DNA of 64,000 nucleotides from Planctomycetales bacterium. GTDB lineage: Bacteria; Planctomycetota; Phycisphaerae; Sedimentisphaerales; Anaerohalosphaeraceae. Within the stretch, counting starts at the first letter, position 1. Each line of letters opens with the position of its first letter. The notes under the pieces are model-generated. The model ran no database searches. It saw nothing but the letters and a program-made list of their open reading frames with translations, and was not told the origin of the DNA. This document shows, in pieces, positions 2,815-51,656 of this stretch. Where the stretch lies: contig JAKEGM010000071.1 of assembly GCA_022615575.1 (NCBI GenBank), positions 12,164-76,163 of the forward strand, written 5' to 3'. The position numbers and the translations under genes were made by a program.

Positions 2815-4530
2815 TTATGCCATTTCAAAGATATCCAGTCCGTCCATTTCGTGCAGGGATTTACCCGCCGGAACCATCGGCCAGACGTTTTCCTCGCGGT
2901 CCACGCGGAAGTCCACCACACACGGGCGGGTTTCAGCCAGCATGTCTTTTACGGCCCCGGCGACCTGCTCTTTTTTATCCACGGTGATGCCAACGCAGCC
3001 GAACGCCCGCGCCAGGTTGGCAAAGTCCGGGTTGACTAACGAGCTTTTTGAATACCGCTTGCCGTAGAACAACTCCTGCCACTGGCGAACCATGCCCATG
3101 TAGCCGTTGTTAATCAGCGCAACCTTAATCGGCAGCTTATACATCACCGCGGTCGAAAGCTCGGTCAGGGTCATGTTAAAGCTGCTGTCGCCGTCGATGT
3201 CGATGACCGGCTTGTCCGGACAGGCCAACTGGGCGCCAATCGCCGCCGGCAGACCGAAGCCCATTGTTCCCAGCCCGCCGGAGGTAATCAACTGACGCGG
3301 GCGGCTGTATTTATAGAACTGCGCCGACCACATCTGGTGCTGGCCGACGCCTGTACAGATAATCGCCTGGCCCTGGGTCTGGCGGCAGATTTCCTCTATC
3401 ACGTACTGCGGCTTGATGACATCGGCGTTTTTATCATACATAAACGGATGCTTGGCCTTCCACGCCGCGATGGTCTCGAACCATTCCTTGCGCGGTTTGT
3501 ATTCGACCTCGTTCAATAGCGCCGTCAACACCTGTTTGGCGTCGCCGACGACCGGGATATCCACTTTGACATTCTTGCCGATACTGGACGGGTCCAGGTC
3601 GATATGGACAATTTTGGCATGCGGGGCAAACGTCTGCAAATTGCCGGTTACACGGTCCTCAAAGCGCGCCCCAACCGAAATCAGCAAATCGGCGTGCTGA
3701 ACGGCGTAGTTGGCATACGCCGAGCCGTGCATCCCGAGCATATCCAGCGATTCGGGCCGGCTCTGGTCATACGCTCCTAATCCCATCAGCGTCGTGGTAA
3801 CGGGAATATTGGCCTTTTGCGCCAGTGCCCGCAGTTGGTCGGATGCGCCGGAGATAATCACGCCGCCGCCGACGTACAGAACGGGCTTTTGGGATTCATT
3901 GATGGCCTGGGCGGCCATGGTAATCTGGCGGGCATGTCCGTGGGCGCGGTTCTTAATCCCCGGCAGGTCAATCTCGCCCTTCGGCGGAATCGGGCACTGG
4001 GCCAACTGCATATCCACCGGGATATCGATCAGGACCGGTCCCGGCCGGCCTGACTTGGCGATATAAAAGGCCTCCCGAATCGATTGCGCCAGATCATTGG
4101 GGTCTTTGATAATCATATTGTGTTTGGTAATCGGCCGGGTGATGCCGGTCGTGTCCGCTTCCTGAAAGGCGTCGTTGCCAATTAAACTGGTACGAACTTG
4201 TCCGGTAATGGCCACTAAAGGAACCGAATCCATCATTGCCGTCGCTATTCCCGTGGTCAGGTTGGTTGCGCCGGGGCCGCTGGTGGCTACGACCACGCCG
4301 ACCTTGCCGGACGCGCGGGCGTAGGCGTCGGCCATGTGGCAGCCGCCCTGCTCGTGCCGGGGGATGATAAAGTTAATCGGCGCATCATACAGCTTATCGA
4401 ACAGCGGCAGCACCACGCCGCCCAGATACCCGAACATTGTCTCGACGCCCTGTTCAATCAGCATGTCCACGATGACCTGCGAACCGACCTTGTGGACAGT
4501 TTTGTCGTTATTAGTTCCGTTTTTGCTCAT
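2815..4530 (-). CDS. ilvB: Acetolactate synthase large subunit (ThDP-dependent)
   Basis: 571 aa. ThDP motif IDGDSSFNMTLTELSTAV...LINNGYMGMVRQWQ. N-terminal GYLGGVVLPLFD...RHEQGGCHMADAYAR. GGAG SD upstream. Confidence 0.95.
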   Translation of the reverse strand: MSKNGTNNDKTVHKVGSQVIVDMLIEQGVETMFGYLGGVVLPLFDKLYDAPINFIIPRHEQGGCHMADAYARASGKVGVVVATSGPGATNLTTGIATAMMDSVPLVAITGQVRTSLIGNDAFQEADTTGITRPITKHNMIIKDPNDLAQSIREAFYIAKSGRPGPVLIDIPVDMQLAQCPIPPKGEIDLPGIKNRAHGHARQITMAAQAINESQKPVLYVGGGVIISGASDQLRALAQKANIPVTTTLMGLGAYDQSRPESLDMLGMHGSAYANYAVQHADLLISVGARFEDRVTGNLQTFAPHAKIVHIDLDPSSIGKNVKVDIPVVGDAKQVLTALLNEVEYKPRKEWFETIAAWKAKHPFMYDKNADVIKPQYVIEEICRQTQGQAIICTGVGQHQMWSAQFYKYSRPRQLITSGGLGTMGFGLPAAIGAQLACPDKPVIDIDGDSSFNMTLTELSTAVMYKLPIKVALINNGYMGMVRQWQELFYGKRYSKSSLVNPDFANLARAFGCVGITVDKKEQVAGAVKDMLAETRPCVVDFRVDREENVWPMVPAGKSLHEMDGLDIFEMA

Positions 4531-4997
4531 ATTTCAACTCCAAAAAAGACAAAAAAATGCTTGTTTTCGTGTATAGACACGATAACAGTGCTGCAAATAC
4601 GGGAGGCGGCGCAGGGGGAACCTGCGGCCAAAGACATGTGTCCATAAACTGACTCCAATCCTGTTCAACATTTCGTTATTCCAGTGTTTGCAGAGTTTTA
4701 GGGCGATTTTCGACAAGCCAACCTGACTGCACCGAGCGAATCAGACCCGCAATGTCGGGATACGCTACCCCGATTCTGCAGCACTCAAACCACATTCTTT
4801 ACTTGTGCCAGGGACGCGAAACAGTGCCAAACACACCCCGCGCCAGAGCATTCCACCAGCCCTGAAGTCGCAAGACTGAGGACTAAAGCTGAATATACAC
4901 TATTTATCCGCCAAAATCAACCCCGCCTTGAGAAAATCTTTGGGGAATCGCTCGAGATACACGGATTCCGCCCGTGCAGTGATGCTCACGGCGGTCA

Positions 4998-6068
4998 TCA
5001 GGTCAATTGCCTGAGCAGCTTATCACAGACCATTTTTTCGGACACCTGCCCGATGCAATAGGCGGGGTTGCTACTTTTAACCGCATAGCCGCGCTTGTCC
5101 GGCTCAACGGCGGCGATACATTCCGGCCGGCGATAGGGGCCTAACCGAAGGGGGTTGGTCGGACCGAAAACCAGCACGGTCGGGGTTCGGGTCGTCAGGG
5201 CAATATGCCCCGGTCCGGTATCGTTGGAAATCACCGCTCCTGCCAGCTGGAACAGGGCGATCAATTCCGGGATGCTTGTCTGCCCCGCCAAATCCGCGAT
5301 GGGAATGCTGCTGTACCGCCGGATGGCTTCGATGGCCGGCTTGTCGCCCGCTGTGCCGACGGCAGCCGCACCCCAGCCGAACTGCCCGCAAAGGGTCTCG
5401 GCGGCGGCGGCGAAACGCTGAGGCGGCCAGCACTTTGAGGCGTGGGCGGAACCGGGGACCAGCACGAGAAATTGTTTTGAACCAAGTCCGTTGTGCCGCA
5501 GTTTTTGCCGGCTCGAATCCTCGTCAGATTGCGGGACGGACAGGGCGCATTCGGTTAAACGCTCAGCGGCGCCGACCTGTTCCAGAATGGCGTGGTAGTA
5601 ATCCAGCAAATGCACAGTCCCCGCAGGGCGGTCAACGACGCGGGTATGAAACAGGTTGGCGCATTCCCGTGCCTCTTTCATGCCGACCCGCTCGGCACAG
5701 CCGGTCATCCATGCGAACAGGGCGCTGCGAAGCAGCCCCTGCAAGTCCAAAACCAGGTCGAATTGCCCGGCCTTGAGCTGCTTTCGCGCATCGCAAAGGG
5801 CGGCAAAACCGCTGACGCTGCGGTACCAGCCGCTGATTTGTTTGCGGTCAAACAGGATGATGTTGTCCAGCCCCTCGGCGCACCGGAGCAGGGGGGCAAA
5901 CTCACGGCGCACCATCCATGTCAGGCGGGCCTGCGGAAACGAGGCCCGCAGCGAACTTAAAACCGGCAGCGCATGGACAATGTCGCCCAGCGCGCTGGGC
6001 TTGATAATCAGGATGTTCCTGTATCGCGTTGTGTTCATAAACCAATTGTGGTTTTCTGTGTCATTCAA
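4998..6068 (-). CDS. Glycosyltransferase family 9 (heptosyltransferase-like)
   Basis: ILIIKPSALGDIVHALPVLSSLRASFPQARLTWMV at the N-terminus and ...ISNDTGPGHIA... near the C-terminus, as in RfaF/WaaC-type GT9 enzymes. The start could instead be Met11 (6038). Confidence 0.8.
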   Translation of the reverse strand: MNDTENHNWFMNTTRYRNILIIKPSALGDIVHALPVLSSLRASFPQARLTWMVRREFAPLLRCAEGLDNIILFDRKQISGWYRSVSGFAALCDARKQLKAGQFDLVLDLQGLLRSALFAWMTGCAERVGMKEARECANLFHTRVVDRPAGTVHLLDYYHAILEQVGAAERLTECALSVPQSDEDSSRQKLRHNGLGSKQFLVLVPGSAHASKCWPPQRFAAAAETLCGQFGWGAAAVGTAGDKPAIEAIRRYSSIPIADLAGQTSIPELIALFQLAGAVISNDTGPGHIALTTRTPTVLVFGPTNPLRLGPYRRPECIAAVEPDKRGYAVKSSNPAYCIGQVSEKMVCDKLLRQLT

Positions 6069-6201
6069 AACAGGCGATATTCTATTCGATAATCAGCTTT
6101 TTGCAAACAGGTTCTTGCTGTTAAAAACGGAGCGTTTATTCCGCAAGATTATGAAAGCCCGAGGGTTAGCATCAAATATCGCTAAAATTCCGGTATTTTT
6201 C

Positions 6202-6230
6202 TTGCAAAGACGCGGGGTTGGCGGTAAAAA
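6202..6230 (+). promoter_or_regulatory. Possible promoter of tRNA-Lys (TTGCAA-17-TAAAAA)
   Basis: TTGCAA 6202..6207, 17-nt spacer, TAAAAA 6225..6230. The tRNA 5' end is 11 nt downstream. Confidence 0.35.
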
Positions 6231-6240
6231 ACGCTCTTCA

Positions 6241-6313
<73 letters not shown>

Positions 6314-13311: not shown

Positions 13312-13800
13312 ATGTTGGAACAGACGGGTTTGATATTTTCGTTGGTAGGTGCCGGGCTGGCGGTTTTTCTGGCGGGCATCGGCTCGGCGATTGGTCTGGG
13401 GATTGCCAGTAAAAGCGCAACGGCGGTCCTGAGCGAAAAACCGGAGCGCTACGGCATCCTGATGCTGATGGTGGTGCTTCCCAGCACGCAGGGCATCTAC
13501 GGGTTCGTCGTGGGCCTGTTTGTAATGATCAAGCTGAACATTTTCGGCGGAAGCGTAGCGGCGGTTACCTGGTATCAGGGCCTGCAAATCCTGGCGGCGT
13601 GCCTGCCGGTGGCGATTGCCGGCTGGATCAGCGCCATTCATCAGGGCAAGACCGGTGCGGCCGGCATCATGATGGCCGCCAAGCGGCCCGAGCTGGCTTT
13701 CAAGGCCGGCGTGGTTTTCGCGGCGATGATTGAACTGTATGCGATTCTGGGCTTTTTGATTTCGCTGCTGGTGCTGATGCTGGGTATCAAGGTCAGCTAA
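13312..13800 (+). CDS. atpK: V/A-type ATPase proteolipid subunit K (duplicated, 4 TM)
   Basis: 162 aa, four hydrophobic helices. VVLPSTQGIYGF, SAIHQGKTGAAGI and AMIELYAILGF align with Enterococcus hirae NtpK ion-site segments. Confidence 0.9.
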   Translation: MLEQTGLIFSLVGAGLAVFLAGIGSAIGLGIASKSATAVLSEKPERYGILMLMVVLPSTQGIYGFVVGLFVMIKLNIFGGSVAAVTWYQGLQILAACLPVAIAGWISAIHQGKTGAAGIMMAAKRPELAFKAGVVFAAMIELYAILGFLISLLVLMLGIKVS

Positions 13801-13839
13801 ATTAACCATTACGAATTAAAAATTAAAGAATCAAGAATT

Positions 13840-14424
13840 ATGAATGCCGAACAGGTCGTAGAAAAGATACTTTCGCAGGCCAAAGCCGAGGCCGAGGCGA
13901 TTCTGCGCGAAGCCCGGCACACAGCCGCCTCGCAGAAAGCCCGGCTCGAAAGCGAGCTGGCGGAGTTTGATAAAAAAACGGATGACTTGGCCAGGGCGGC
14001 CGCCGCCGATAAATTACAGCGGATGCTGGCGGCGGCGCGGATGGACAACGCTCGGCGCCTGCTGGCCTGCCGGGTGGCGATTCTCGACGAGGTCTTCGAC
14101 AGGGCGAAAAAAGCGGTCAATGGGCTGTCGGATGAGGCCTACCAGGCGCTGATGGCGTCGATGATGAAAAAAGCCGTCGAAACCGGTGATGAGGAAGTCA
14201 TCATCGGAAAAGGCGAAAAACGCATCAATGACGCGCTTCTAAAAAGAATCAACAGCGACTCCGGCGGCGCAAAAGGCAATCTGCGTCTCAGCGATAAGCA
14301 GGCGGATATCACCGGGGGATTTATCCTGTCCTGCGGTCGGGTGCAAAAGAACGCTTCGACGGATGTTATGATTGACCGTCTTCGCGAGTCAATGCAGATT
14401 GAACTGGCCAACGAATTATTTTAA
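13840..14424 (+). CDS. atpE: V/A-type ATPase subunit E
   Basis: 194 aa. Long charged N-terminal helix (EKILSQAKAEAEAILREARHTAASQKARLESELAEF) plus a globular C-terminus. Position after K. Confidence 0.8.
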   Translation: MNAEQVVEKILSQAKAEAEAILREARHTAASQKARLESELAEFDKKTDDLARAAAADKLQRMLAAARMDNARRLLACRVAILDEVFDRAKKAVNGLSDEAYQALMASMMKKAVETGDEEVIIGKGEKRINDALLKRINSDSGGAKGNLRLSDKQADITGGFILSCGRVQKNASTDVMIDRLRESMQIELANELF

Positions 14425-14429
14425 TGGAA

Positions 14430-14500
14430 CCACGGATTTCACAGATTAACGCGGCTTTTTCTCTTTTATTTTAATCCGCGAAAATCCGCGTAATCCGTGG
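14430..14500 (+). repeat. Intercistronic imperfect hairpin (arms built from short tandem words), atpE-atpC junction
   Basis: Left arm ccacggatttcacagattaacgcgg (14430..14454) and right arm ccgcgaaaatccgcgtaatccgtgg (14476..14500). By hand, 20 of 25 positions pair. The 21-nt loop is T-rich. Confidence 0.75.
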
Positions 14501-14519
14501 TGAATCATAAGGAACAAAA

Positions 14520-15570: not shown

Positions 15571-15646
15571 GACACAGATTAACACTGATTAGCACAGATT
15601 TTCAGTTACTTTATTATAATCAGCGAAAAGCTGTGGGATCTGTGTC
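15571..15646 (+). repeat. Intercistronic imperfect hairpin (tandem-word arms), atpC-atpF junction
   Basis: gacacagat (15571..15579) pairs with atctgtgtc (15638..15646). Inner ctgatt/aatcag also pairs. The left arm is cacagatta-acactgatta-gcacagatt. It shares the 11-mer cacagattaac with the 14430 hairpin. Confidence 0.7.
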
Positions 15647-15672
15647 AAAAAGTAAAATAAGAAAGGAAACAA

Positions 15673-19243: not shown

Positions 19244-19247
19244 TTAA

Positions 19248-19306
19248 CCACGAAGCGCACGAAGAAAAAAAATAAAAAATCTTCGCGACCTTCGTGTTCT
19301 TCGTGG
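19248..19306 (+). repeat. Intercistronic hairpin (tandem 9-nt words CACGAAG), atpB-atpD junction
   Basis: ccacgaagcgcacgaag (19248..19264) against cttcgtgttcttcgtgg (19290..19306). 15 of 17 positions pair. The 25-nt loop is A-rich. Confidence 0.8.
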
Positions 19307-19327
19307 TGAAAAAAGGAAATCGCAGGA

Positions 19328-22872: not shown

Positions 22873-22879
22873 AAAATTA

Positions 22880-23082
22880 GTCCTTAGTCCATAGGTTTTT
22901 GACGCAAGGAGCGAATTAAACCATCAGCACTAACTCATCGGCTAATTCAAATGCCTTGAGATTTCTGTAATTTCTCATACGGTAATTATAACTCCCGCCA
23001 ACTCCAAAAACAAATACTTATTACCTGACCTTTGATGTCTCCAAAAAACCCCATGATGGCTCATGGACTATGGACTAAGGAC
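22880..23082. mobile_element. Inverted-repeat-bracketed remnant of a four-helix-bundle gene cassette
   Basis: gtccttagtccatag (22880..22894) is the exact reverse complement of ctatggactaaggac (23068..23082). The arms are GGACTA-type heptamer words. The interior holds a 20-codon 4HB gene stub. Confidence 0.45.
22916..22978 (-). pseudogene. Truncated four-helix-bundle (23S rRNA IVS protein family) gene, first 20 codons only
   Basis: Own translation: MRNYRNLKAFELADELVLMV*. It matches the characteristic N-terminus (..FRDLKVWQKAHEL.L.VY..) of this family. Full-length members are about 115-125 aa. Confidence 0.6.
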
Positions 23083-43281: not shown

Positions 43282-43391
43282 ATGCCGAATGCCTGTAAAT
43301 TCAATTGCCTTGGATTTGCATGAGGTTTAAACCAGTTAATTAAACAAAGACAACAAAATCAGTAAACGCTAAAGAAATTGTGGAGCCGGAT

Positions 43392-46300
43392 ATGCAGTCG
43401 TTCAAAACAAGGATTGCCGGACAGTGGAAACAATGGCTGATACCGATAGGGCTGTGCCTGCTGGCGGCGATGGGCATCGCCGCATCGAGCGACCCAAGCG
43501 GTGTGCTGCGCAGCCGGGTGTATAAACTCAAGCATATCACCAGCCAGCAGGCCCAGGAATTGTTTTCGCAGCTGGGCATCGGCAAAAGCTACAACACGCT
43601 GACCGGCGATGTCCTGATTGTGACCAGCGATGTCGGATCAGACCTGCTGAAAGCCACTGAAATTATCCCCCTCCTGGATCAGGATCCGCCGGCCCGGATT
43701 CGCGTGCTGATGGTCGGTACGGCTGCGGAACCCCTGCCTTCGCCGGAGGCGCTGACGGCGCGGCTTGCCAAGACGATGACCGTCGGTACAATGACCGACG
43801 CCCCGGTCAGCGGGTCCGCGAAGCCGGCGATTGTTGATGTTGTTGACACAAAACTGATTGCCATCGGCGCCGAGGATGTTTTGAACGAAATCGAAACAGT
43901 TGCGGCCGAATGGAAGAAAGAAAATCAAAAAACGGCTTTACCGACGGAAAACGCGGCGCCGGCGGAGGTGATTGTTGAGCCGAATGTGCCGGCTGAACCA
44001 AATCTGCCGAAGCCCCCCGGGCCCGAAGAACTTGTGCCGCAGCAGGAACCGAATGTGCCGGCTGAACCGAATCTGCCGACCGAACCCAGGCCCGAAGGGC
44101 CTCTGACGCCGCCGGATGCAAACGCGCCTTCGGACCGGCTTCCTGTTCCCCAGGTTCCGGCAGAACAACCCGCCCAGCCGGAGACGGAAGAGGACTTTTT
44201 AAGCGAGGGGCTGATGAAGGCCCTGGCGGATGCCGAAGAAAAGACACCGCCGTCCCCGATCGAAACCCCGAAGACGCCTGCCCAGGCCGTTCCCGTTCAG
44301 GCGGTTCCGGCCGAACCGGTTCAAACACCGGCTGCTGAGCCGACGGAATCATTGCCGGCTCCGATTTTGCCCGTTCCGCAGCCCGGCGGCGAAACGGCCG
44401 CAGAACCCAACGAAGCTGCGCCGGCACAACCGGCGCCAGACGAATCGGACGAGATGAAGGCGCTGCAGGAGTTTATCGAGAAGGTCCAGCGGGAAGAGGC
44501 GGCGATGGCCCAGGAACAGGCGCAAGCCGAGGCGAAGGCCGCCGAACAAGGCGATGAGCGCCCCGCGCAGGAGACCGACCGGGTCAATGCGCTTCAGGCG
44601 GAACTGGCTCAGCTTCGCCAAAAACTGACGGAGCTGGAGACGCAGGCCGCCGCACCCCGGCCGCAAGCCGGCGCTGCGGGGTCCCCGGAGGCCGCTGCGC
44701 CGACAGCCGCACCGGCCGCCAAGCCGCAGGAGAAGGTTCAGTCCCCCGAAGCGGCGCAGATTCCCGCATCGGTTGCCGAAAAGGAACTGGAAACGGTCGT
44801 TGATCTGCCGCAGGAGGTGGAACTGGAATCGCTGGTCGATCTGGTGGGCAAACAGCTTGGCCTCAACTATATGTACGACCCGGCAATTATCAGAGGCCAG
44901 AAGGTTCAGCTCAAGATTCACGGCGGCAAAATCAAGGTCAAAGACACCTACGCCCTGCTCGAATCAGCGCTGCGGTTTAAGGGATATATTATGACCCGCC
45001 GGGACCAGTTGGTGACCATTCTGCAGGCCGGCGAACTGGCTACCAGGGCCGAGCCGACCCTGCGCGGGCCGGACGAACCCATCCAGCCGGGCGACATTGT
45101 GGTCGCCAGTATGTTTGCGCTGAACTACATTGATGCGACATCCGCACAAAATATGCTCAAGACAATGAACCTGGGGGCCAGCTTTACCCCGCTTCCCGAA
45201 ACCAACACCCTGATTGTGACCGATTATGCCTATCGGATGGACCGGATTCGCAAGGTTCTGGAGATGATTGATGTCTCCAGCGCGACCCGGGAGTATAAAT
45301 TCCGCACGCTCAAGTATATGAAGCCCTCAGATATCGTCACCAAGCTCAAAGACCTGGTCGGCCAGCTGCAGGGTGTGTCGCTGCAAATCAGTACCTCTGC
45401 CGCCGCCGGTGCGCAGACCCAAATGCGGACGGTGACCACGCGCAATCCTCAAACCGGTCAGGTGGAAACCAAACAGGTTCCGATTTCGGCGCCGGCAACG
45501 GCTGCTGCGCCGGGCGCGGCGGCGCCGGCGCCCACCGCGGACACGGTCTTTATCGATACGGATGACCGCACCAACCGAATCCTGATTATCGGCAAGGCGG
45601 ACCAAATCACGCTGATTGAGGAATTGGTTGATGTGCTGGATGTGCCGCAATACAACCTCAAATATGTTCGGGAATATATTATCCAGAATGTCGAGGCGGT
45701 CGAAGTGGTCAATGTGCTCAACGAACTGGGTCTGGCCAGCGTAACCGTTTCGATGCCCGCCCCGACGGCGGCGACCGGCCGGACAGCGGCATCGGGGCGC
45801 ACGGCGCAGACGCAAACGCAGCCGCAGACGCCGGAGATGGCGATGTCGCCTCGGACAGGCGCGGCAGGCGCCGCCGGCACGGCCGGAGGCGATCAGCCCT
45901 ATGTGGCGGTTCGTCCGGCGACCAATTCGCTGCTGGTCAACGGCACCGCCGAACAGCACAGCGCCATTGAACTGGTGATTGCACACGTGGATGTGGTGCA
46001 GAAAGACCAGCGGACCATCCGCCAGTACGAGATTCAGTATGTCGATACGCAGGAAATCATCAATACCATGACGGATCTGGGCATGATTGCTCCGCAGACG
46101 ACCACCGGCACGACCGGCATGGATGGACGCGGGACGCGGGGTACGACGTCTGCCCGCAGTACGGCCGTTGCGCAGGCAATGCCTGTTGCCGAAGGGGTTG
46201 CGCCGCCGATGGTGCTGCCGACCGCCGAAGGCGGCTCGGGGGTGGAACTGACCGCCGAGTACCCGCAAATCGCGGTATTGGAAACGACCAACTCGCTGCT

Positions 46301-47633
46301 GGTCTATGCCACGCCGCGCCAGCACGATGCCATTGCCCTGGTGATTGCCCACGCCGACCGTCAACTGGATGTTACCACAACCCCCTACGTGGTCTATGCG
46401 CTGGAAAATCAGGACCCGGTGGAACTGGCCGAAGTCCTGACCAAGCTGATTCAGGAAACCGTGGAGGACGCTGCTGCGTCCAAGACCTCGACGCCGGAGT
46501 CCAAGATACAGGTACTGGTGGCTCCGACAGGCGGCGGAACCGCGGCAGGGACGCCGCCGACGCTGGAAGAACAAAAAATCAAGATTATCCCCGACGAGAT
46601 GTCCTATTCGCTCATTGTTTATGCCAACAAGCGCAACCAGCAGTGGGTCGGCGAATTGATCAAATCTCTGGACGAATACCGTCCGCAGGTTCTGCTGGAT
46701 TGCACGCTGGTGGTCATCAACCAGGACGAAACGTTCAAATACGATATGGATATCGTATCCAAAACCTATAGCGGACTGACGTTAAGGGAGAATTCGCCCA
46801 TCGAAACGATTTCCGGTGATTTTAGTGAACCGGTTTACGGGGAAGCGAGATCAACAAGCGGCAATTTCACAGGGTTCCTTAACAGCGATATGGTGCAGGC
46901 CCTGCTGGAAATGGTACAGACGAAAAATTACGGCAGGGTGATGGCCCGGCCCAAAATCCTTGTCAATGACAACCAGGAAGGCGAAATCAAAACTGAAAAT
47001 ACAACATCGATTGCGCAGCAGAAAAGCATCATTCAGCCGAGTTCTGATCAGGGACAAACGATTACGACAACAGACGTAAGTTTCGCTGAATATTCAGAAG
47101 GCGTAACCTTAAAGATTAAACCGCATATCAGCAAGGGGGATATGCTGCGTCTGGAGATTACGCTTGGCCGGTCGGACTTTAAACTGCAGCAGGATGTAAA
47201 GGTTGCCGGGGAAACCTATCCGCGTCCGCCGGATATCCTTTCTACGGATGTAACGACCGTAGCGACCGTTCCGGACGGCACGACCATTATTCTGGGCGGC
47301 CTGGAGGGCGTTGACCAGCAGAAAAACACTACGAAGGTGCCGATCCTGGGGGACATTCCGATTGTGGGCGGGTTGTTTAGGGGTGTCGATGATATCGGGG
47401 CCCAAAGCAAGCTTTATGTGTTTGTTAAGGCCCATGTGCTTCGGCCCAGCGATCAAATCGAAGGATTAGAGGACATCCGTCGCGTTTCCGAAAAGAACCG
47501 CAGGGCGTTTGAAGAAATGGAGAAGAAGTTCCAGGAACATCAGGACTGGCCGGGGATAAAGCCCAAGCCGATGGACCCGGTAAAGGTTCTGGAAGAAGAC
47601 GAAGCTGGTTTGACGCCGGTGGAAGAAAAGTGA
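43392..47633 (+). CDS. gspD: Giant secretin (GspD/PilQ family), 1413 aa from ATG 43392
   Basis: C-terminal secretin domain ...TKVPILGDIPIVGGLFRG...KLYVFVKAHVLRP. N0-like LVDLVGKQLGLNYMYDPAIIRGQKVQLK. Five N-domain-like repeats ending NTLIVTDYAYRMDRIRKVLEMID, NRILIIGKADQITLIEELVDVLD, NSLLVNGTAEQHSAIELVIAHVD, NSLLVYATPRQHDAIALVIAHAD and SLIVYANKRNQQWVGELIKSLD. Confidence 0.92.
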   Translation: MQSFKTRIAGQWKQWLIPIGLCLLAAMGIAASSDPSGVLRSRVYKLKHITSQQAQELFSQLGIGKSYNTLTGDVLIVTSDVGSDLLKATEIIPLLDQDPPARIRVLMVGTAAEPLPSPEALTARLAKTMTVGTMTDAPVSGSAKPAIVDVVDTKLIAIGAEDVLNEIETVAAEWKKENQKTALPTENAAPAEVIVEPNVPAEPNLPKPPGPEELVPQQEPNVPAEPNLPTEPRPEGPLTPPDANAPSDRLPVPQVPAEQPAQPETEEDFLSEGLMKALADAEEKTPPSPIETPKTPAQAVPVQAVPAEPVQTPAAEPTESLPAPILPVPQPGGETAAEPNEAAPAQPAPDESDEMKALQEFIEKVQREEAAMAQEQAQAEAKAAEQGDERPAQETDRVNALQAELAQLRQKLTELETQAAAPRPQAGAAGSPEAAAPTAAPAAKPQEKVQSPEAAQIPASVAEKELETVVDLPQEVELESLVDLVGKQLGLNYMYDPAIIRGQKVQLKIHGGKIKVKDTYALLESALRFKGYIMTRRDQLVTILQAGELATRAEPTLRGPDEPIQPGDIVVASMFALNYIDATSAQNMLKTMNLGASFTPLPETNTLIVTDYAYRMDRIRKVLEMIDVSSATREYKFRTLKYMKPSDIVTKLKDLVGQLQGVSLQISTSAAAGAQTQMRTVTTRNPQTGQVETKQVPISAPATAAAPGAAAPAPTADTVFIDTDDRTNRILIIGKADQITLIEELVDVLDVPQYNLKYVREYIIQNVEAVEVVNVLNELGLASVTVSMPAPTAATGRTAASGRTAQTQTQPQTPEMAMSPRTGAAGAAGTAGGDQPYVAVRPATNSLLVNGTAEQHSAIELVIAHVDVVQKDQRTIRQYEIQYVDTQEIINTMTDLGMIAPQTTTGTTGMDGRGTRGTTSARSTAVAQAMPVAEGVAPPMVLPTAEGGSGVELTAEYPQIAVLETTNSLLVYATPRQHDAIALVIAHADRQLDVTTTPYVVYALENQDPVELAEVLTKLIQETVEDAAASKTSTPESKIQVLVAPTGGGTAAGTPPTLEEQKIKIIPDEMSYSLIVYANKRNQQWVGELIKSLDEYRPQVLLDCTLVVINQDETFKYDMDIVSKTYSGLTLRENSPIETISGDFSEPVYGEARSTSGNFTGFLNSDMVQALLEMVQTKNYGRVMARPKILVNDNQEGEIKTENTTSIAQQKSIIQPSSDQGQTITTTDVSFAEYSEGVTLKIKPHISKGDMLRLEITLGRSDFKLQQDVKVAGETYPRPPDILSTDVTTVATVPDGTTIILGGLEGVDQQKNTTKVPILGDIPIVGGLFRGVDDIGAQSKLYVFVKAHVLRPSDQIEGLEDIRRVSEKNRRAFEEMEKKFQEHQDWPGIKPKPMDPVKVLEEDEAGLTPVEEK

Positions 47634-47711: not shown

Positions 47712-49409
47712 ATGAAAGAATTATTAATCCAAGCAGCCGAGCGGAGCGGGATTGTCAATGCCCAACTGCTTCGGGATTTTTTTGCCGAACACGCTGGCGA
47801 TACCCAGCGCATCGACCAGCTTTTGCTGACAGCGCCGACGTTTACGGAAGACGTGGTGCTGCGGCTGTTTGGCGAGGCGCTGGGAATCCCCTTTTTTGAG
47901 GAGATCAGCAGCAAGGATGTGCCGAAAGAGTTTATCGAGCATATCCCAGCGCCGTATGCCCAGCATCATTATGTCATCGGCATTCAGCCCCAGGGCAGCG
48001 GCGCCATTACCGTCATCGCGGCCAACCCGCTCAACGCGACAGCGGTCGATAATGTCTCCAAAATGCTTCGCCGGCCGGTCGAAATGGGTCTCGCTACCCG
48101 CGCGGCGATTACCTCGGTGATTGACGTGGCCTACGAGCAGAAGAACACGGTTATCGAGGAGGTCGCCGAGGAACTGGACGGTCAGAATCTGGACCAATTG
48201 GCCGACGAGGTCGGCAGCTCCGAAGACCTGCTGGACGTGGTCAACCGTCCGCCGGTCATCCGGCTGGTCAACGACATCCTGTTCCGCGCCCTGCAGATGC
48301 GGGCCAGCGATATTCACATTCACCCGTTCGAGACCAAGATCGTCGTGCGCTACCGCATCGACGGCATCCTGTACGACACGCTGACGCTGAACCGCAACGT
48401 GCTGCCGCTGGTGATTTCGCGCATCAAGGTGATGGCGGGGATGGATATCGCCGAACGCCGCATGCCGCAGGACGGGCGCTGCAGCGTCCGCATCGGCCAG
48501 CGTGAAATCGACCTGCGCGTCAGCACCGTGCCGACCAGCTACGGCGAACGGGCGGTGCTGCGGCTGCTGGATAAAAGCAGCGGCATCCTGACGCTGGAGC
48601 AGTTGGGATTTTGGCAGGAGGATAAAGAGGTCTTTGACCGAATGATTAACCGCACGCACGGCGTGATTTTTGTGACCGGCCCGACCGGCAGCGGCAAGAG
48701 CACCACGCTGTACGCCTGCCTCAACCGCCTGGATTCGACGGTCAAGAACATCATGACGGTTGAAGACCCCATTGAGTATCAGCTCGAGGGCATCAGCCAG
48801 ATGCAGGTGGCGCCCAAGAAGGGGATGAACTTTGTCAACGCCCTGCGGCATATCCTGCGTCAGGACCCGGATGTCATCATGGTCGGCGAGGTGCGCGACC
48901 AGGAAACCGCCGCGATGGCGATTCAGTCGTCGCTGACGGGGCACCTGGTGTTCAGCACGCTGCATACCAACGACGCCGCCGGGGCCATCAGCCGCCTGCT
49001 GGATTTCGGGGTCGAGCCGTACCTGGTCAGCTCATCCATGGTGTGCGTGCTGGCCCAGCGCCTGGTGCGGCGGATTTGCCCGGACTGCAAACAGGCCTAT
49101 GACCCCCCGGATCACGAACTGCGCGACCTGGGCATCATGGAAAGGAAAAAGACGCCGTTTTACATGGGAACCGGCTGTACCAAGTGTTTTGATACGGGCT
49201 ACCGGGGGCGAACGGGCATCTATGAGCTGATGACCATCAACGACGACATCCGCGAGATGATTTACAGCCGCCAGACCGCCGGCGCCATCAAGCGCAAGGC
49301 GCTGGAGTACGGCATGCAGACGCTGCGGATGGACGGCGCCCGCAAGGTCCAGACCGGAACGACGACGCTGGCGGAGGTGCTGCGGGTGACGCAGTCGGAT
49401 AACGTCTAA
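47712..49409 (+). CDS. gspE: Type II secretion ATPase GspE
   Basis: Walker A GPTGSGKSTT. Asp/His boxes ...IMVGEVRD..., ...TGHLVFSTLHTND.... Tetracysteine CPDCKQ...CTKCFDTGY. T2SSE_N-like N-terminus. Confidence 0.95.
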   Translation: MKELLIQAAERSGIVNAQLLRDFFAEHAGDTQRIDQLLLTAPTFTEDVVLRLFGEALGIPFFEEISSKDVPKEFIEHIPAPYAQHHYVIGIQPQGSGAITVIAANPLNATAVDNVSKMLRRPVEMGLATRAAITSVIDVAYEQKNTVIEEVAEELDGQNLDQLADEVGSSEDLLDVVNRPPVIRLVNDILFRALQMRASDIHIHPFETKIVVRYRIDGILYDTLTLNRNVLPLVISRIKVMAGMDIAERRMPQDGRCSVRIGQREIDLRVSTVPTSYGERAVLRLLDKSSGILTLEQLGFWQEDKEVFDRMINRTHGVIFVTGPTGSGKSTTLYACLNRLDSTVKNIMTVEDPIEYQLEGISQMQVAPKKGMNFVNALRHILRQDPDVIMVGEVRDQETAAMAIQSSLTGHLVFSTLHTNDAAGAISRLLDFGVEPYLVSSSMVCVLAQRLVRRICPDCKQAYDPPDHELRDLGIMERKKTPFYMGTGCTKCFDTGYRGRTGIYELMTINDDIREMIYSRQTAGAIKRKALEYGMQTLRMDGARKVQTGTTTLAEVLRVTQSDNV

Positions 49410-49411
49410 GG

Positions 49412-49849
49412 ATTGTATATTGTATATTGTAAATTGTATATTGTATATTGGTGAAGAAGTATTGTCCTGTGAATAAGGAAGAATTGAAACAACGGACTAA
49501 ACGCTTTGCTCATCGATGCGTGAAATTATGTATGGCGCTGCCGAACACAATCCTTGGACGGCATATATCGGGACAACTTGTCCGCAGCTCGACGGCTGTC
49601 GCTGCAAATTACAGAGCTGTTTGTATGGCCCAATCAAGAGCCACTTTTATTTCAAAACTTGCAATTGTCATAGAAGAAGTTGATGAATCGTATTTTTGGA
49701 TTGAATTTGCGTCGGATGAAAAATTAGTCAAGCCAAAACAAATTGCTGGCTTGCTGGAGGAAGCTCAAGCGTTAACGGCTATTTTTGTGGCTTCTCAGAA
49801 TACAGCCAGACGTAACAAGAAGTAATATACAATTTACAATATACAATTT
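49412..49849. mobile_element. IR-bracketed four-helix-bundle gene cassette (IVS-like element) inserted between gspE and gspF
   Basis: The left arm is 5.5 tandem ATTGTAT/ATTGTAA heptamers (49412..49449). attgtatattgtaaattgtata (49419..49440) is the perfect reverse complement of 49826..49847. Confidence 0.5.
49448..49825 (+). CDS. Four-helix-bundle protein (23S rRNA intervening-sequence protein / Avd family)
   Basis: ...KQRTKRFAHRCVKLCMALPNTILGRHISGQLVRSSTAVAANYRAVCMAQSRATFISKLAIVIEEVDESYFWIEF... follows the family pattern (F..R...L...LP......QL.RS.TS...NY.EA....S..DF..K......E..E...WL). The true start may be GTG 49469. Confidence 0.85.
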   Translation: MVKKYCPVNKEELKQRTKRFAHRCVKLCMALPNTILGRHISGQLVRSSTAVAANYRAVCMAQSRATFISKLAIVIEEVDESYFWIEFASDEKLVKPKQIAGLLEEAQALTAIFVASQNTARRNKK

Positions 49850-49861
49850 ATTCATTCGTTT

Positions 49862-51076
49862 ATGCCGAGATTTGAATACATTGCGATTAACGCCGCCAAG
49901 AAGGCGGAAAAAGGCACGGTAACGGCCGAAAGCGCATTGGCCGCCCGCAAGCATCTGCGCAGCCGGGGTCTGCATCCGACGGACATTACGCAGATTCGGA
50001 TGGAAACGGCCCAAAAAACCTTTAAGGACTTTTTTGCGCGCAGCGGCAAGAAAGAAGTGGCCGGCTTTACCAAGGAGCTTTCCACCATGCTCAACGCCGG
50101 CATCAAGCTGACCGACGCACTGAGCGTGCTGACGCTGCAGGTGACCAACCCCCACCTGCGGGCGACGGTGACGGAAATCCGCGACCGCGTTGTGACGGGC
50201 GAATCCTTCGCCGATTCGCTGGCCGAGTACGAGCAGTTTTTCGACGTGATTTATGTCAGCATGATGCGCGTCGGCGAGGCCACGGGCACGCTGGGCGACA
50301 GTTTGGCGACCATCGCGGCGTTTATGGACAAGCGCCAGCGGCTCGAAGCGAAAATGACAACGGTGATGATGTATCCAGCCATCCTGTTTCTGTTTTGTAT
50401 TATCGTGGTGCTGGTGATTACGATTGTGGTGATTCCCAAAATCACCGAGCAGCTGGTCAAAACCGGCCAGCAGCTTCCGTGGATTACCAAGGCGATTATG
50501 AAGTTTTCCGCCCTGCTGACGAGCTGGTGGCTGCTGGTGATTATCGCGGCCATTGTCGGGCTTGTCCTGCTGTATAAGCGGCTGATGAAAACCGACAAAG
50601 GGGCTGCCATGCGCGACACGCTGCTGCTGAAACTGCCCGGCATGGGCAAGCTGCTCAAGCAGGAAATCGTGGCGCGGTTCACCTCGACGCTGGCCACGCT
50701 GCTGGGGTCGGGGCTGTCGATGGCCGAATCGCTGCGGGTGGTCAGTCAGGTCACCGGCAACATCATTATGATCAATGCCATCCGGCAGGCCCGCGAGCGC
50801 ATCCTGTCGGGGGCGGATATTTCCACGCCGCTGCGGGACAGCGGCGTGATTGACCCGGCGATTGCCCACATGGTGACCATCGGCGAAAAAAGCGGCGAAC
50901 TCGAACAGATGCTGCGGATGATCAGCGACAACCTTGAGGCGGATTCGGACCTGCGGATCGAGCGGTTCAGCCGGATTATTGAGCCGGTGATTATCGTCTT
51001 TATGGCCGGCATTATCGGCGTTATCGCATACGCGACGCTGCTGCCCCTGTTTAAGTATTCGGTTACGCAGTTTTGA
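49862..51076 (+). CDS. gspF: Type II secretion platform protein GspF
   Basis: 404 aa with duplicated T2SSF domains (...FTKELSTMLNAGIKLTDAL... and ...FTSTLATLLGSGLSMAESL...) and 3 TM segments. Confidence 0.95.
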   Translation: MPRFEYIAINAAKKAEKGTVTAESALAARKHLRSRGLHPTDITQIRMETAQKTFKDFFARSGKKEVAGFTKELSTMLNAGIKLTDALSVLTLQVTNPHLRATVTEIRDRVVTGESFADSLAEYEQFFDVIYVSMMRVGEATGTLGDSLATIAAFMDKRQRLEAKMTTVMMYPAILFLFCIIVVLVITIVVIPKITEQLVKTGQQLPWITKAIMKFSALLTSWWLLVIIAAIVGLVLLYKRLMKTDKGAAMRDTLLLKLPGMGKLLKQEIVARFTSTLATLLGSGLSMAESLRVVSQVTGNIIMINAIRQARERILSGADISTPLRDSGVIDPAIAHMVTIGEKSGELEQMLRMISDNLEADSDLRIERFSRIIEPVIIVFMAGIIGVIAYATLLPLFKYSVTQF

Positions 51077-51088
51077 CGATTGAGAAGC

Positions 51089-51108
51089 GGATATTGAAAA
51101 CAATATCC
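51089..51108 (+). other. Small perfect hairpin between gspF and gspG
   Basis: ggatattg-aaaa-caatatcc, followed by AT-rich word-like sequence (atatcaaatattcaatatacaatttt). Confidence 0.5.
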
Positions 51109-51150
51109 CATATCAAATATTCAATATACAATTTTATTGAGAGGTTGATT

Positions 51151-51585
51151 ATGAAACAAAAAAGAAAGAGCAACGGTTTTACCCTGGTGGAACTGATGGC
51201 GGTACTGCTGATTATCGCGCTGCTGGCGGGGCTGGCGGCCACCAATTTCATGGGCCAGACGGACAAGGCCAAGCAGATTACCACCAAGGCCGACCTGAAA
51301 ACGCTGCACAATGCCGTCAATATGTTCAAACTGGATACCGGCCGGTATCCCAGCGAAGATGTCGGGCTGATTGAGCTGATCGAGCAGCCCACCGATGTCG
51401 AGGGCTGGAATATGGAGGGGTATCTGGGGACGACGTCGCTGCCCAAAGACGCCTGGAAAAGCGAATTTATGTTCATGCTCAATCCCGAAAGCGGCAAGCC
51501 CTTTGTGATTATCAGCTACGGGGCCGACGGCAAGGAGGGGGGCGAAGGTTATGACATGGACCTGTACAGCACCGATACCGAATAA
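51151..51585 (+). CDS. gspG: Major pseudopilin GspG
   Basis: ORF trimmed to ATG 51151 after GAGAGG. MKQKRKSNG|FTLVELMAVLLIIALLAGLA... C-terminal ISYGADGKEGGEGYDMDLYS (GspG Ca-binding-loop type). Confidence 0.9.
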   Translation: MKQKRKSNGFTLVELMAVLLIIALLAGLAATNFMGQTDKAKQITTKADLKTLHNAVNMFKLDTGRYPSEDVGLIELIEQPTDVEGWNMEGYLGTTSLPKDAWKSEFMFMLNPESGKPFVIISYGADGKEGGEGYDMDLYSTDTE

Positions 51586-51601
51586 TTTTCAATCTTCTGA
51601 G

Positions 51602-51629
51602 GTGCAATTTTCAAATTTGAAAATTGCAC
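51602..51629 (+). repeat. Perfect 28-nt palindrome downstream of gspG
   Basis: gtgcaattttcaaa/tttgaaaattgcac. It is flanked by outer complementary ttttcaat (51586..51593) and attgaaaa (51637..51644), and by tandem tgaaaattg words. Confidence 0.85.
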
Positions 51630-51656
51630 TTTGAAAATTGAAAATGAGGATGTTCA

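Follow-up and report, generated by a model that had tools for sequence, protein, structure and literature searches.

A four-helix-bundle gene framed by inverted heptamer arrays between gspE and gspF of a planctomycete is probably one copy of a widespread, self-insulating operon cassette

How can a small gene of foreign-looking composition be accommodated between two consecutive genes of a secretion operon? This question is raised by a 64,000-nt stretch of contig JAKEGM010000071.1 from a Planctomycetales bacterium (hereafter the window), in which gspE and gspF are separated by 452 nt. The spacer holds a gene for a four-helix-bundle (4HB) protein of the family known from the intervening sequences (IVSs) of 23S rRNA, and heptamer arrays in inverted orientation stand on both sides of this gene. 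A first-pass annotation of the locus had proposed that gspE and gspF are normally adjacent and that the unit belongs to a family of IVS-like cassettes colonising intercistronic sites. The comparison with related loci and with other operons, described below, lends good support to this proposal. In our view, the segment 49411-49851 probably belongs to a widespread type of IVS-like gene cassette that moves horizontally, and it would insulate itself in the operon transcript by means of a stem between its two arms and cleavage by RNase III.

The assignment of the gene, predicted as a 4HB protein of roughly 120 aa and found to comprise 118 codons, is based on profiles as well as on the fold. The protein matched PF05635 with 42.5 bits (cut-off 33.8) and TIGR02436 with 68.1 bits (cut-off 24), and a profile of its homologues matched the structure 2RLD at 8e-20. 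An AlphaFold2 model built with 34 homologues (pLDDT 96.4) predicts helices at residues 3-22, 28-52, 57-83 and 89-115; in Foldseek comparisons this model reached template modelling (TM) scores of 0.84 to 2RLD (BT_0352, 'S23 ribosomal protein family'), 0.82 to 2GSC (Xcc0516), and 0.76 to Avd (4DWL/8UB7) from the diversity-generating retroelement of a Bordetella phage. Five chains are listed for each of 2RLD and 2GSC. The protein is basic, with a pI of 9.8 and 19 K+R versus 11 D+E residues. Avd has been described as a positively charged pentameric barrel that binds reverse transcriptase (RT) and stem-loop RNA (bioRxiv 10.1101/2023.10.23.563531); sequence similarity between Avd and the 4HB protein was not detectable even by profile. 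A protein search returned 1291 homologues, the best one being 99% identical and originating from a Planctomycetales metagenome-assembled genome, and many others, labelled Planctomycetes, Phycisphaerae, Desulfobacterales or Ignavibacteria, are 65-83% identical. Among 2.9 million viral contigs of IMG/VR no relative of this 4HB subfamily was found. The family has been described as functionally uncharacterised (bioRxiv 10.1101/2024.02.27.582315; PMC10053308). Intact 4HB genes show dN/dS values of 0.059-0.076 at saturated dS, thus the protein is under strong purifying selection. An alternative TTG start at 49448 would extend it to 125 aa; all homologues begin at the position of the GTG at 49469.

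Heptamer arrays flank the gene. The annotated 5.5 ATTGTAT-type heptamers at 49412..49449 were recovered by Tandem Repeats Finder as 5.6 copies of ATTGTAT with a period of 7 (49412-49450, score 71), and the perfect 22-bp pairing of 49419..49440 with 49826..49847 is a subset of a perfect 24-bp inverted repeat (49419-49442/49824-49847), which extends to 27 nt at 96% identity (49416-49442/49824-49850). The left array begins only 2 nt past the gspE stop. In the predicted fold of a 481-nt RNA, the long-range stem appears in the minimum free energy structure and in the centroid (z = -3.3). Apart from the heptamer arms no repeats exist near the 4HB gene, and a template/variable repeat pair is absent. 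The GC content of the gene is 0.43 versus 0.62 and 0.58 in its flanks. One might suppose that an ordinary small gene merely lies in an AT-rich, low-complexity intergenic region with a chance symmetry, since the intergenic regions of this genome are generally AT-rich and include many short low-GC islands. However, the heptamer word pattern was matched eight times in the window versus 0.42 expected (at most two matches in 100 shuffles), the arms are the top inverted repeat within 600 nt across the entire window, and the same architecture with the same periodicity recurs in other phyla (see below). The comparative data refute coincidence, to which we assign a negligible probability.

The limits of the unit became visible when copies from other operons were aligned. 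At locus L001 a 4HB gene with 81% amino acid identity to that of the window separates rnfE from rnfA; it shares the strand of both genes and has ATTGTAN and TACAAT words in its flanks as in the window. Two further copies from Phycisphaerae (L005 and L007) are likewise situated at rnfE/rnfA. When six copies from gsp and rnf loci were aligned at the DNA level, the similarity started at the left arm, just past the upstream stop codon, and stopped at the right arm; therefore, the unit consists of arms plus gene (49411-49851), i.e. about 441 bp. The set for the wider comparison, which was collected from a genome scan, metagenome loci, five annotated plasmid copies and the BT_0352 group, comprises about 41 cassettes. 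According to the record titles they belong to eight phyla: Planctomycetota, Desulfobacterota, Cloacimonadota, Ignavibacteriota, Bacteroidota, Cyanobacteriota, Chloroflexota and Spirochaetota. The host junctions, for which gene names beyond Pfam matches are our reading of the translations, include gspE/gspF, rnfE/rnfA, leuC/leuD, ABC transporter permease/ATPase, FtsX/FtsX, dapB/lepB, araD/araA, aminotransferase/DAHP synthase, drmD/MmeI and DUF1156/HEPN as well as a junction in an opp-like operon, and the two partners are often subunits of the same complex or act at steps of the same pathway. All cassettes are co-oriented with, and located between, co-directional genes, apart from L010 and L014, in which an uncertain upstream gene lies at a distance of more than 200 nt. 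At L110 the left arm TGACAATTGACAAT (2480-2500) overlaps the 3' end and the stop codon of the upstream aminotransferase gene, with the ATG of the 4HB gene following after a 9-nt spacer; therefore, arms can intrude into host coding sequence.

The same configuration surrounds a crystallised family member. A protein 98% identical to the 2RLD chain is encoded between araD (Aldolase_II) and araA (arabinose isomerase) on gut-metagenome contigs, which appear to be from Bacteroides thetaiotaomicron in view of the PDB title for BT_0352 and the ara operon of this species. The upstream flank contains five AATTGAC and the downstream flank four ATTGTCA units, which form an inverted repeat of 31 nt; a 73%-identical relative at araD/araA is flanked by other words that again match each other, and in these Bacteroides loci, too, the GC content of the 4HB gene is below that of the flanks. 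Further cassettes are present in Treponema and in cultured cyanobacteria, among them Gloeocapsa PCC 7428 (pGLO7428.03). Very long, nested heptamer arrays surround the 4HB genes of L104 (Planktothrix agardhii plasmid p1), L105 (Treponema saccharophilum pTS1) and L106 (a Chlorohelix plasmid). In Planktothrix, either side of the gene bears GATTTAC, six CCCCAAT and four to six CGTAAAT units, and each flank is itself a hairpin (A..A' ORF A..A', where ORF stands for open reading frame), and about 40 GAAAGNG units precede the gene in Treponema. The CCCCAAT unit of Planktothrix resembles the cyanobacterial STRR1 unit (STRR, short tandemly repeated repetitive sequence).

Across the collection, the arm words differ between cassettes and match within each of them. 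They include ATTGTAT, GAATGAT, ATTTCGG, GACGATGGAC, ATTTTCA/ATTTTCC, ATTTACTATTGAC, TTATTGA, ATTTTAG, GATTTAC with CCCCAAT, GAAAGNG, AATTGAC and also GACGATG. For 34 cassettes the arm score had a median of 19 for the own pair versus 8 for mismatched pairs, the own partner ranking first in 14 of the 34; the five plasmid copies and BT_0352 have inverted-repeat flanks as well. Hence, flanking inverted repeats are not confined to the copy of the window. Over 815 aligned positions the arms are 87% Watson-Crick paired. A period of 7 or 14 nt scored best for 36 of the 38 left flanks and for 35 of the 38 right ones (about 93% overall), compared to 12% of 1839 random and 14% of 442 AT-rich control windows. 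At all 12 loci checked the GC content of the 4HB gene is 6-25 points below that of the flanks. The placement of the arms is similarly regular. At gspE/gspF the left arm follows the gspE stop at a median distance of 3 nt, and the right arm precedes the gspF start by a median of 6 nt; therefore, pairing of the arms would bring stop and start back to approximately their native spacing. The right arm follows the 4HB stop at a median of 2 nt. About 24 nt lie between the left arm and the 4HB start, and they often include a GAAGGAG-like tract; such tracts, equivalent to the GAAGAAG of the window, are present in L001, L002, L003 and L007.

The two arms are, moreover, not equivalent on the coding strand. 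The G+T content is 0.56 in the 5' array and 0.44 in the A+C-rich 3' array, left exceeding right in 32 cassettes and the reverse being true in five (p 2e-4). This polarity might serve to avoid start codons before the downstream gene, to leave that gene with an A/C-rich leader free of structure once the RNA is cut, or to let a protein bind to the U/G-rich array. The calculated duplex is more stable in the sense than in the antisense RNA in 26 versus eight cases (p 4e-4), an asymmetry that is suggestive only, because the calculation takes in flanking coding sequence. Co-orientation, arm polarity, arms abutting the cistrons and the stability of the sense-strand duplex favour a function in the transcript.

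Whether the unit has moved can be judged from the gspE/gspF junction of relatives. A metagenome scan with GspE yielded 80 loci with GspE proteins 69-91% identical to that of the window, 75 of them with a scorable junction. In agreement with the proposed normal adjacency, 25 junctions are tight with spacers of 5-26 nt; 15 contain a 4HB cassette with spacers of 406-491 nt, and 35 are intermediate (36-178 nt). Hence, the junction is not uniformly occupied, and judged from these spacers the native distance would be 5-26 nt, with the cassette inserted therein. Among the 80 loci every cassette but one is situated at gspE/gspF, the exception being the second cassette of L059, which has the order gspE-4HB-gspF-4HB-gspG with two differing cassettes (4254-4598 and 5938-6285; 66% amino acid identity). 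The gene is absent from both of the closest relatives. L022 (GspE 91% identical) has a 27-nt spacer, TAAGGATTGTCAGAAGTACAATTGCTT, in which an ATTGT...ACAAT mini-hairpin is kept and which looks like a residue after deletion of the cassette interior, and L023 (GspE 87%) contains a gene-less hairpin of 95 nt. The loci L040 and L041, with 96.2% nucleotide identity in gspE and 96.7% in gspF, differ completely in their spacers, with a 4HB cassette at one locus and an unrelated hairpin of 84 nt at the other. The identities of 4HB and GspE are uncorrelated (Spearman rho -0.09, p 0.28, 153 pairs). For example, the GspE proteins of L024 and L025 are 87% identical to that of the window and their 4HB proteins just 55-59%, compared to 81% for the rnf-located L001; the 4HB protein of the window is as near to the rnfE/rnfA copies as to any gspE/gspF copy. 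A single ancient, vertically inherited insertion at gspE/gspF was rejected, because the identities are uncorrelated and near-identical flanks hold different spacers. The patchy occupancy and the uncoupled identities rather imply that the junction has been colonised or exchanged repeatedly. At L046 the spacer (4196-4382) carries a GC-rich hairpin of about 130 nt (..TTGTCATTGCGAGGAGCGTAGCGACGAAGCAATC..), apparently a member of another repeat-element family at the same junction.

Several of the 35 intermediate spacers are gene-less word hairpins or lone arms, and two of them can be traced to a cassette. The gene-less hairpin of L070 consists of a left arm (27 nt, 93% identical to L015) followed by the last about 20 nt of the 4HB ORF plus right arm (30 nt, 90%, E 1e-5), and at L057, L067, L069 and L086 only the end of the 4HB ORF and the right arm are left. 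Since the end of the 4HB coding sequence is preserved in L070 and L057, a cassette origin holds for at least some of the gene-less hairpins. Pseudogenes with stops or frameshifts exist in L005, in L020 (leuC-leuD of Maribellus maritimus), in L055 and probably in L018. The reverse order of events can be considered too: intercistronic hairpins of tandem words might arise by slippage or in another way and be useful to the host, for instance by stabilising transcripts or coupling translation, as has been proposed for the STRR hairpins of cyanobacteria. The 4HB gene would then have invaded their loops secondarily, and arms and gene would not form a single unit. This would fit the gene-less word hairpins found at gspE/gspF in relatives (L023, L026, L041, L058 and L083) and at other junctions of the window, the STRR hairpins of 7-bp repeats between hupS and hupL (PMC2670836), and the heptamer arrays of Xanthomonas, Nostoc and Beggiatoaceae, for which no 4HB link has been reported (PMC4692102, PMC4679880). 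However, the arms move together with the gene among unrelated operons, as seen from the ATTGTAN words shared by the window, L001 and L007, the gene-less hairpins of L070 and L057 still end with 4HB coding sequence, and the gene-less CACGGATT hairpins are made of 10-nt words unlike any cassette arm. We therefore consider an origin from pre-existing hairpins quite unlikely.

Within the window, a single copy of the cassette is present. Gene-less hairpins of similar style had also been noted near 14430, 15571, 19248 and 51602; they do exist and lie between co-directional ORFs, but those of the CACGGATT type may represent a separate family. Words of this type fill the gspE/gspF junction of L023 (4199-4293) and L041 (4196-4282), thus they form a dispersed hairpin family in its own right, which is possibly similar to repetitive extragenic palindromic (REP) sequences and either related to the cassettes or independent of them. 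The operon holding the three hairpins between 14429 and 19310 is, as a guess from one product, ATPase-like. A decayed cassette had been suspected at 22880..23082. An inverted repeat of 15 bp made from heptamer words is indeed present there (22879-23082, TTAGTCC.. / ..GGACTAA with about 165 nt of AT-rich sequence in between), yet the flanking genes are divergent, i.e. the site is not intercistronic, and neither six-frame translations searched with a hidden Markov model built from 121 homologues nor Pfam (E up to 10), PDB sequences or BLAST against plasmid-borne 4HB proteins revealed a coding remnant. A minus-strand peptide of this region (...YRNLKAFELADELVL...) may resemble the N-termini of classic IVS proteins. 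A direct array of 6.4 AATTAAG-like heptamers at 13800-13845 lies directly upstream of the ORF starting at 13840 and has no inverted partner.

The decay series also bears on a purely DNA-level explanation, according to which the arms are the terminal inverted repeats or cruciform ends of a unit resembling REP sequences or MITEs (miniature inverted-repeat transposable elements), moved in trans by a transposase or recombinase from elsewhere in the genome with the 4HB gene as passenger, and the RNA stem is a by-product. Its architecture with terminal inverted repeats, the decay to gene-less hairpins and lone arms, which mirrors the relation between insertion sequences and MITEs, and the patchy, recently changing occupancy all agree with such an element. 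Mismatches of the G:U type inside the arms outnumber those of the A:C type only insignificantly (17 versus 8, p 0.11); therefore, the arms may have a role at the DNA level. However, the arm sequences vary even among close cassettes (ATTGTAT, GAATGAT, ATTTCGG, GACGATG, AATTGAC and others), so that no single recognition sequence for a transposase is apparent. The neighbouring genes, i.e. gspD/E/F/G and ORFs for pseudopilin-like proteins, do not include any transposase, integrase or RT, as had been stated before. No target-site duplication was evident when occupied junctions were compared with the tight junctions of relatives, which are not pre-insertion sites of the same lineage. Furthermore, the passenger is under strong purifying selection, the cassettes strictly follow the direction of the host transcript, and their arms are polar with G+T- versus A+C-rich sequences. 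Thus, we judge this explanation to be unlikely.

Alternatively, the cassette could be a domesticated module that is kept for the benefit of the host, either because a processing site adjusts the gspE:gspF ratio or because the 4HB protein has a cellular or defence function. The purifying selection on the protein and the repeated occupation of one junction could be understood in this way. Several plasmid copies (L103, L104 and L106) reside in apparent anti-phage operons, namely at drmD/MmeI of DISARM and, in two unrelated phyla, at DUF1156/Swt1-HEPN; defence islands may be frequent landing sites, or there may be a functional link. On the other hand, the cassette is absent in the closest relatives and in a third of the junctions, pseudogenes and deletion remnants are frequent, the host operons (gsp, rnf, leuCD, ara, opp-like, dapB/lepB) are functionally unrelated, the GC content looks foreign, and there is no co-divergence with the host gene. 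A domesticated host module is hence, in our opinion, very unlikely. For an element so easily lost by its hosts, the strong purifying selection on the protein suggests that this protein serves the element itself.

We come back to the self-insulating cassette as the probable explanation. It has no obvious means of expression of its own, and we infer that it would be read through from the promoter of the gsp operon. In the polycistronic RNA the two arrays could then pair to an AU-rich duplex of 24-27 bp that loops out the insert and would bring the gspE stop and the gspF start to within about 10-17 nt of each other. With at least 24 bp this duplex would be a canonical substrate of RNase III, and by analogy to the IVSs of 23S rRNA the cut would release separate gspE, 4HB and gspF RNAs. 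As a result of loop-out and cleavage the insertion would be tolerated without polarity. As the most likely role of the 4HB protein we propose that it binds, as a positively charged oligomer, to the arms or the RNA of its own element and is required for the persistence or spread of the latter, which is suggested by its homology to Avd. Over time the gene would be lost by internal deletions, giving rise to gene-less word hairpins and lone arms.

Several observations weigh against this interpretation. RNase III cleavage and the lack of polarity are pure analogies to the rRNA IVSs. The loop of 380 nt with a translated ORF may hinder long-range pairing, and ribosomes ending at the gspE and 4HB stops would cover parts of both arms. 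About one fifth of the cassettes (L011, L013, L014, L016 and L081) show a weak or no inverted repeat under ungapped scoring, and the missing significance of the G:U excess fails to distinguish selection at the RNA from that at the DNA level. A recombinase or insertion mechanism was not found for the cassettes, which adds to the lack of an evident target-site duplication, and the repeated occupation of one junction could partly reflect allelic exchange via the conserved flanking genes instead of transposition. Finally, the TACAAT words of the window resemble the -10 box of sigma-70 promoters. Such matches face outward on both sides (49412-49468 on the minus strand and 49812-49840 on the plus strand; five sites versus 1.0 expected), so that expression of the downstream gene might be independent of RNA processing. 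An intrinsic terminator was not found in the promoter/terminator scan of the cassette. The resemblance is confined to this word family; promoter or terminator activity as a general explanation was rejected, because the words of the other cassettes are unlike a -10 box.

The features of the locus are compiled in Table 1. The operon has the order secretin-gspE-gspF-gspG-pseudopilin on the plus strand. The words in the gspF/gspG spacer are akin to those of the main cassette (ATTGTATATTGAA on the minus strand, with one mismatch to the query pattern), and together with the mini-hairpin they may be the collapsed remnant of a second cassette. At L059 a complete cassette occupies the same gspF/gspG junction. 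The secretin encoded upstream of gspE (43380-47633) is unusually long with 1417 aa, and its N-terminal third contains an extended low-complexity region rich in Pro/Ala/Glu. The window does not contain rRNA genes; Rfam at gathering thresholds reported two tRNAs only.

Table 1. Positions of the cassette, its parts, the adjoining genes and further word hairpins in the 64,000-nt window.
Feature	Position	Strand	Basis and remarks
gspE, secretion ATPase of type II secretion system/type IV pilus (T2SS/T4P) type, upstream cistron	47712..49409	+	PF00437 E 5e-138 and MshEN domain; TAA stop 49407-49409
Whole cassette (left array, 4HB gene, right array)	49411..49851	+	Ends of cross-operon alignment; low GC
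Left (5') arm, 5.6 tandem heptamers ATTGTAT/ATTGTAA, G+T-rich	49412..49450	+	Core 49419-49442 pairs with right arm
Putative ribosome-binding site of 4HB gene, GAAGAAG, purine-rich	49453..49459	+	Sequence and alignment
4HB gene, 118 aa, GTG start, PF05635/TIGR02436	49469..49825	+	Homologue starts, profiles, fold
Right (3') arm, inverted heptamers (A/T)TACAAT, A+C-rich	49824..49850	+	Begins within 4HB stop codon; 11 nt upstream of gspF ATG
gspF, platform protein, downstream cistron	49862..51076	+	PF00482 E 4e-52
Mini-hairpin GATATTG-AAAA-CAATATC (51090-51107), then right-arm-type heptamers CAATAT[AC] to 51132, in gspF/gspG spacer 51077-51151	51090..51132	+	Possible second-cassette remnant
Perfect 28-nt palindrome GTGCAATTTTCAAA/TTTGAAAATTGCAC, then AAAATTG heptamers, in spacer 51596-51645	51602-51629		Between gspG and next pseudopilin gene; intercistronic word hairpin, same operon
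Gene-less word hairpins, words of 7-10 nt (CACGGATT, CGCGGATT, CACAGATT, CACGAAG)	14429-14501, 15571-15660, 19244-19310		Intercistronic in co-directional operon

Among the known systems, the IVSs of 23S rRNA from Leptospira, Coxiella and others are closest to the cassette. The IVS of Coxiella burnetii has a length of 428-444 nt, a terminal stem of 28 bp, an S23p ORF and a low GC content, and its cut by RNase III has been shown (PMC4990558). Both types of element encode a PF05635/TIGR02436 protein, have a similar size (441 bp here), and possess terminal inverted repeats whose stem of about 25-28 bp encloses the ORF. They also share a GC content below that of the host, a sporadic distribution with suspected horizontal transfer, and the lack of a known mobility gene (PMC4990558). 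In contrast, the cassette resides in a protein-coding operon and not in helix 25 or 45 of 23S rRNA, and its excision by RNase III is a proposal, whereas that of the IVS has been shown. The arms of the cassette are tandem heptamers with a word varying from copy to copy, a build that may or may not distinguish them from the arms of rRNA IVSs. Avd proteins have the four-helix-bundle fold and the basic character in common with the 4HB protein, whereas the cassette is not adjoined by an RT or a template/variable repeat pair, and Avd genes have not been reported with bracketing inverted heptamer arrays. The gene cassettes of integrons are also compact, promoter-less, single-gene units, co-oriented with an external promoter and equipped with an imperfect inverted repeat. 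The attC of integrons is, however, a single site 3' of the ORF, and IntI recombines it with attI. In the present cassette the ORF lies between two arms, the neighbourhood lacks an integrase, and the insertion sites are scattered operon junctions.

Inverted repeats in transcribed intergenic regions are also known as Correia elements of Neisseria (Correia repeat enclosed elements, CREE, or neisserial miniature insertion sequences, NEMIS) and as enterobacterial repetitive intergenic consensus (ERIC) or REP hairpins, which form mRNA hairpins that can be either cut by RNase III or protected from it and may contain outward promoters (PMC2649163). Unlike the cassette, those elements are non-coding, about 100-150 bp long, and have a family sequence that is conserved among the many nearly identical copies of a genome, and what separates the cassette from them and from MITEs is its conserved, selected gene between arms that are variable word arrays. 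The intergenic heptamer repeats (STRR sequences, TAACTGA, inverted pairs of GGGAATC in Xanthomonas, GGGGATT in Nostoc) likewise consist of 7-nt units, are often intercistronic and sometimes form inverted, hairpin-capable pairs. The length of these arrays varies among close relatives, their odd phylogenetic spread suggests horizontal transfer, and their function is not known (PMC2670836, PMC4679880, PMC4692102). They differ from the arrays of the cassettes in that the latter are the two ends of a gene unit, and four-helix-bundle or IVS proteins are not mentioned in two of the papers on heptamer arrays (PMC4679880, PMC4692102). In the open-access literature nothing was found on 4HB genes bracketed by heptamer arrays, on their place in mRNA operons, or on their decay into gene-less heptamer hairpins; apparent matches for 'BT0352' were unrelated, one being the GenBank accession BT035293. 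The 4HB family, the rRNA IVSs, the processing of mRNA inverted-repeat elements by RNase III (PMC2649163) and intergenic heptamer arrays are thus already known. Apparently new is the combination of 4HB gene and inverted heptamer arrays as one cassette, which occurs in ordinary operons of many phyla and undergoes turnover and decay.

A wider conjecture can be attached to these data. The 4HB gene with its heptamer arrays may constitute a new class of transposase-less mobile element that lives in operon transcripts and uses an Avd-like 4HB oligomer to recognise its own RNA or DNA arms for spread or maintenance, and the long-unexplained intergenic heptamer arrays, such as the STRR hairpins of cyanobacteria, TAACTGA of Beggiatoaceae, Cyanobacteria and Bacteroidetes, and the inverted GGGAATC of Xanthomonas, may at least partly be the arms or decay products of such elements. 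We put this forward tentatively and think it more doubtful than sound.

Three loose ends may nevertheless belong to one phenomenon, namely the function of the IVS ORF, the thousands of stand-alone genes annotated as 'four helix bundle protein', and the over-represented intergenic heptamers in several phyla. To our knowledge, no function has been established for the conserved ORF of the 23S rRNA IVSs since the early 1990s. The occurrence of the crystallised member BT_0352 in the same configuration makes this question directly testable. If the interpretation is true, the cassette would be a common selfish insert in essential operons, among them those for gsp, rnf, leuCD, ara and aromatic amino acid genes, which survives because it is looped out of the host RNA through the folding of its ends. 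It would then exemplify a general principle by which insertions avoid polarity, provide a source of intercistronic processing sites and hairpins, and offer a possible design for insulated inserts in synthetic operons.

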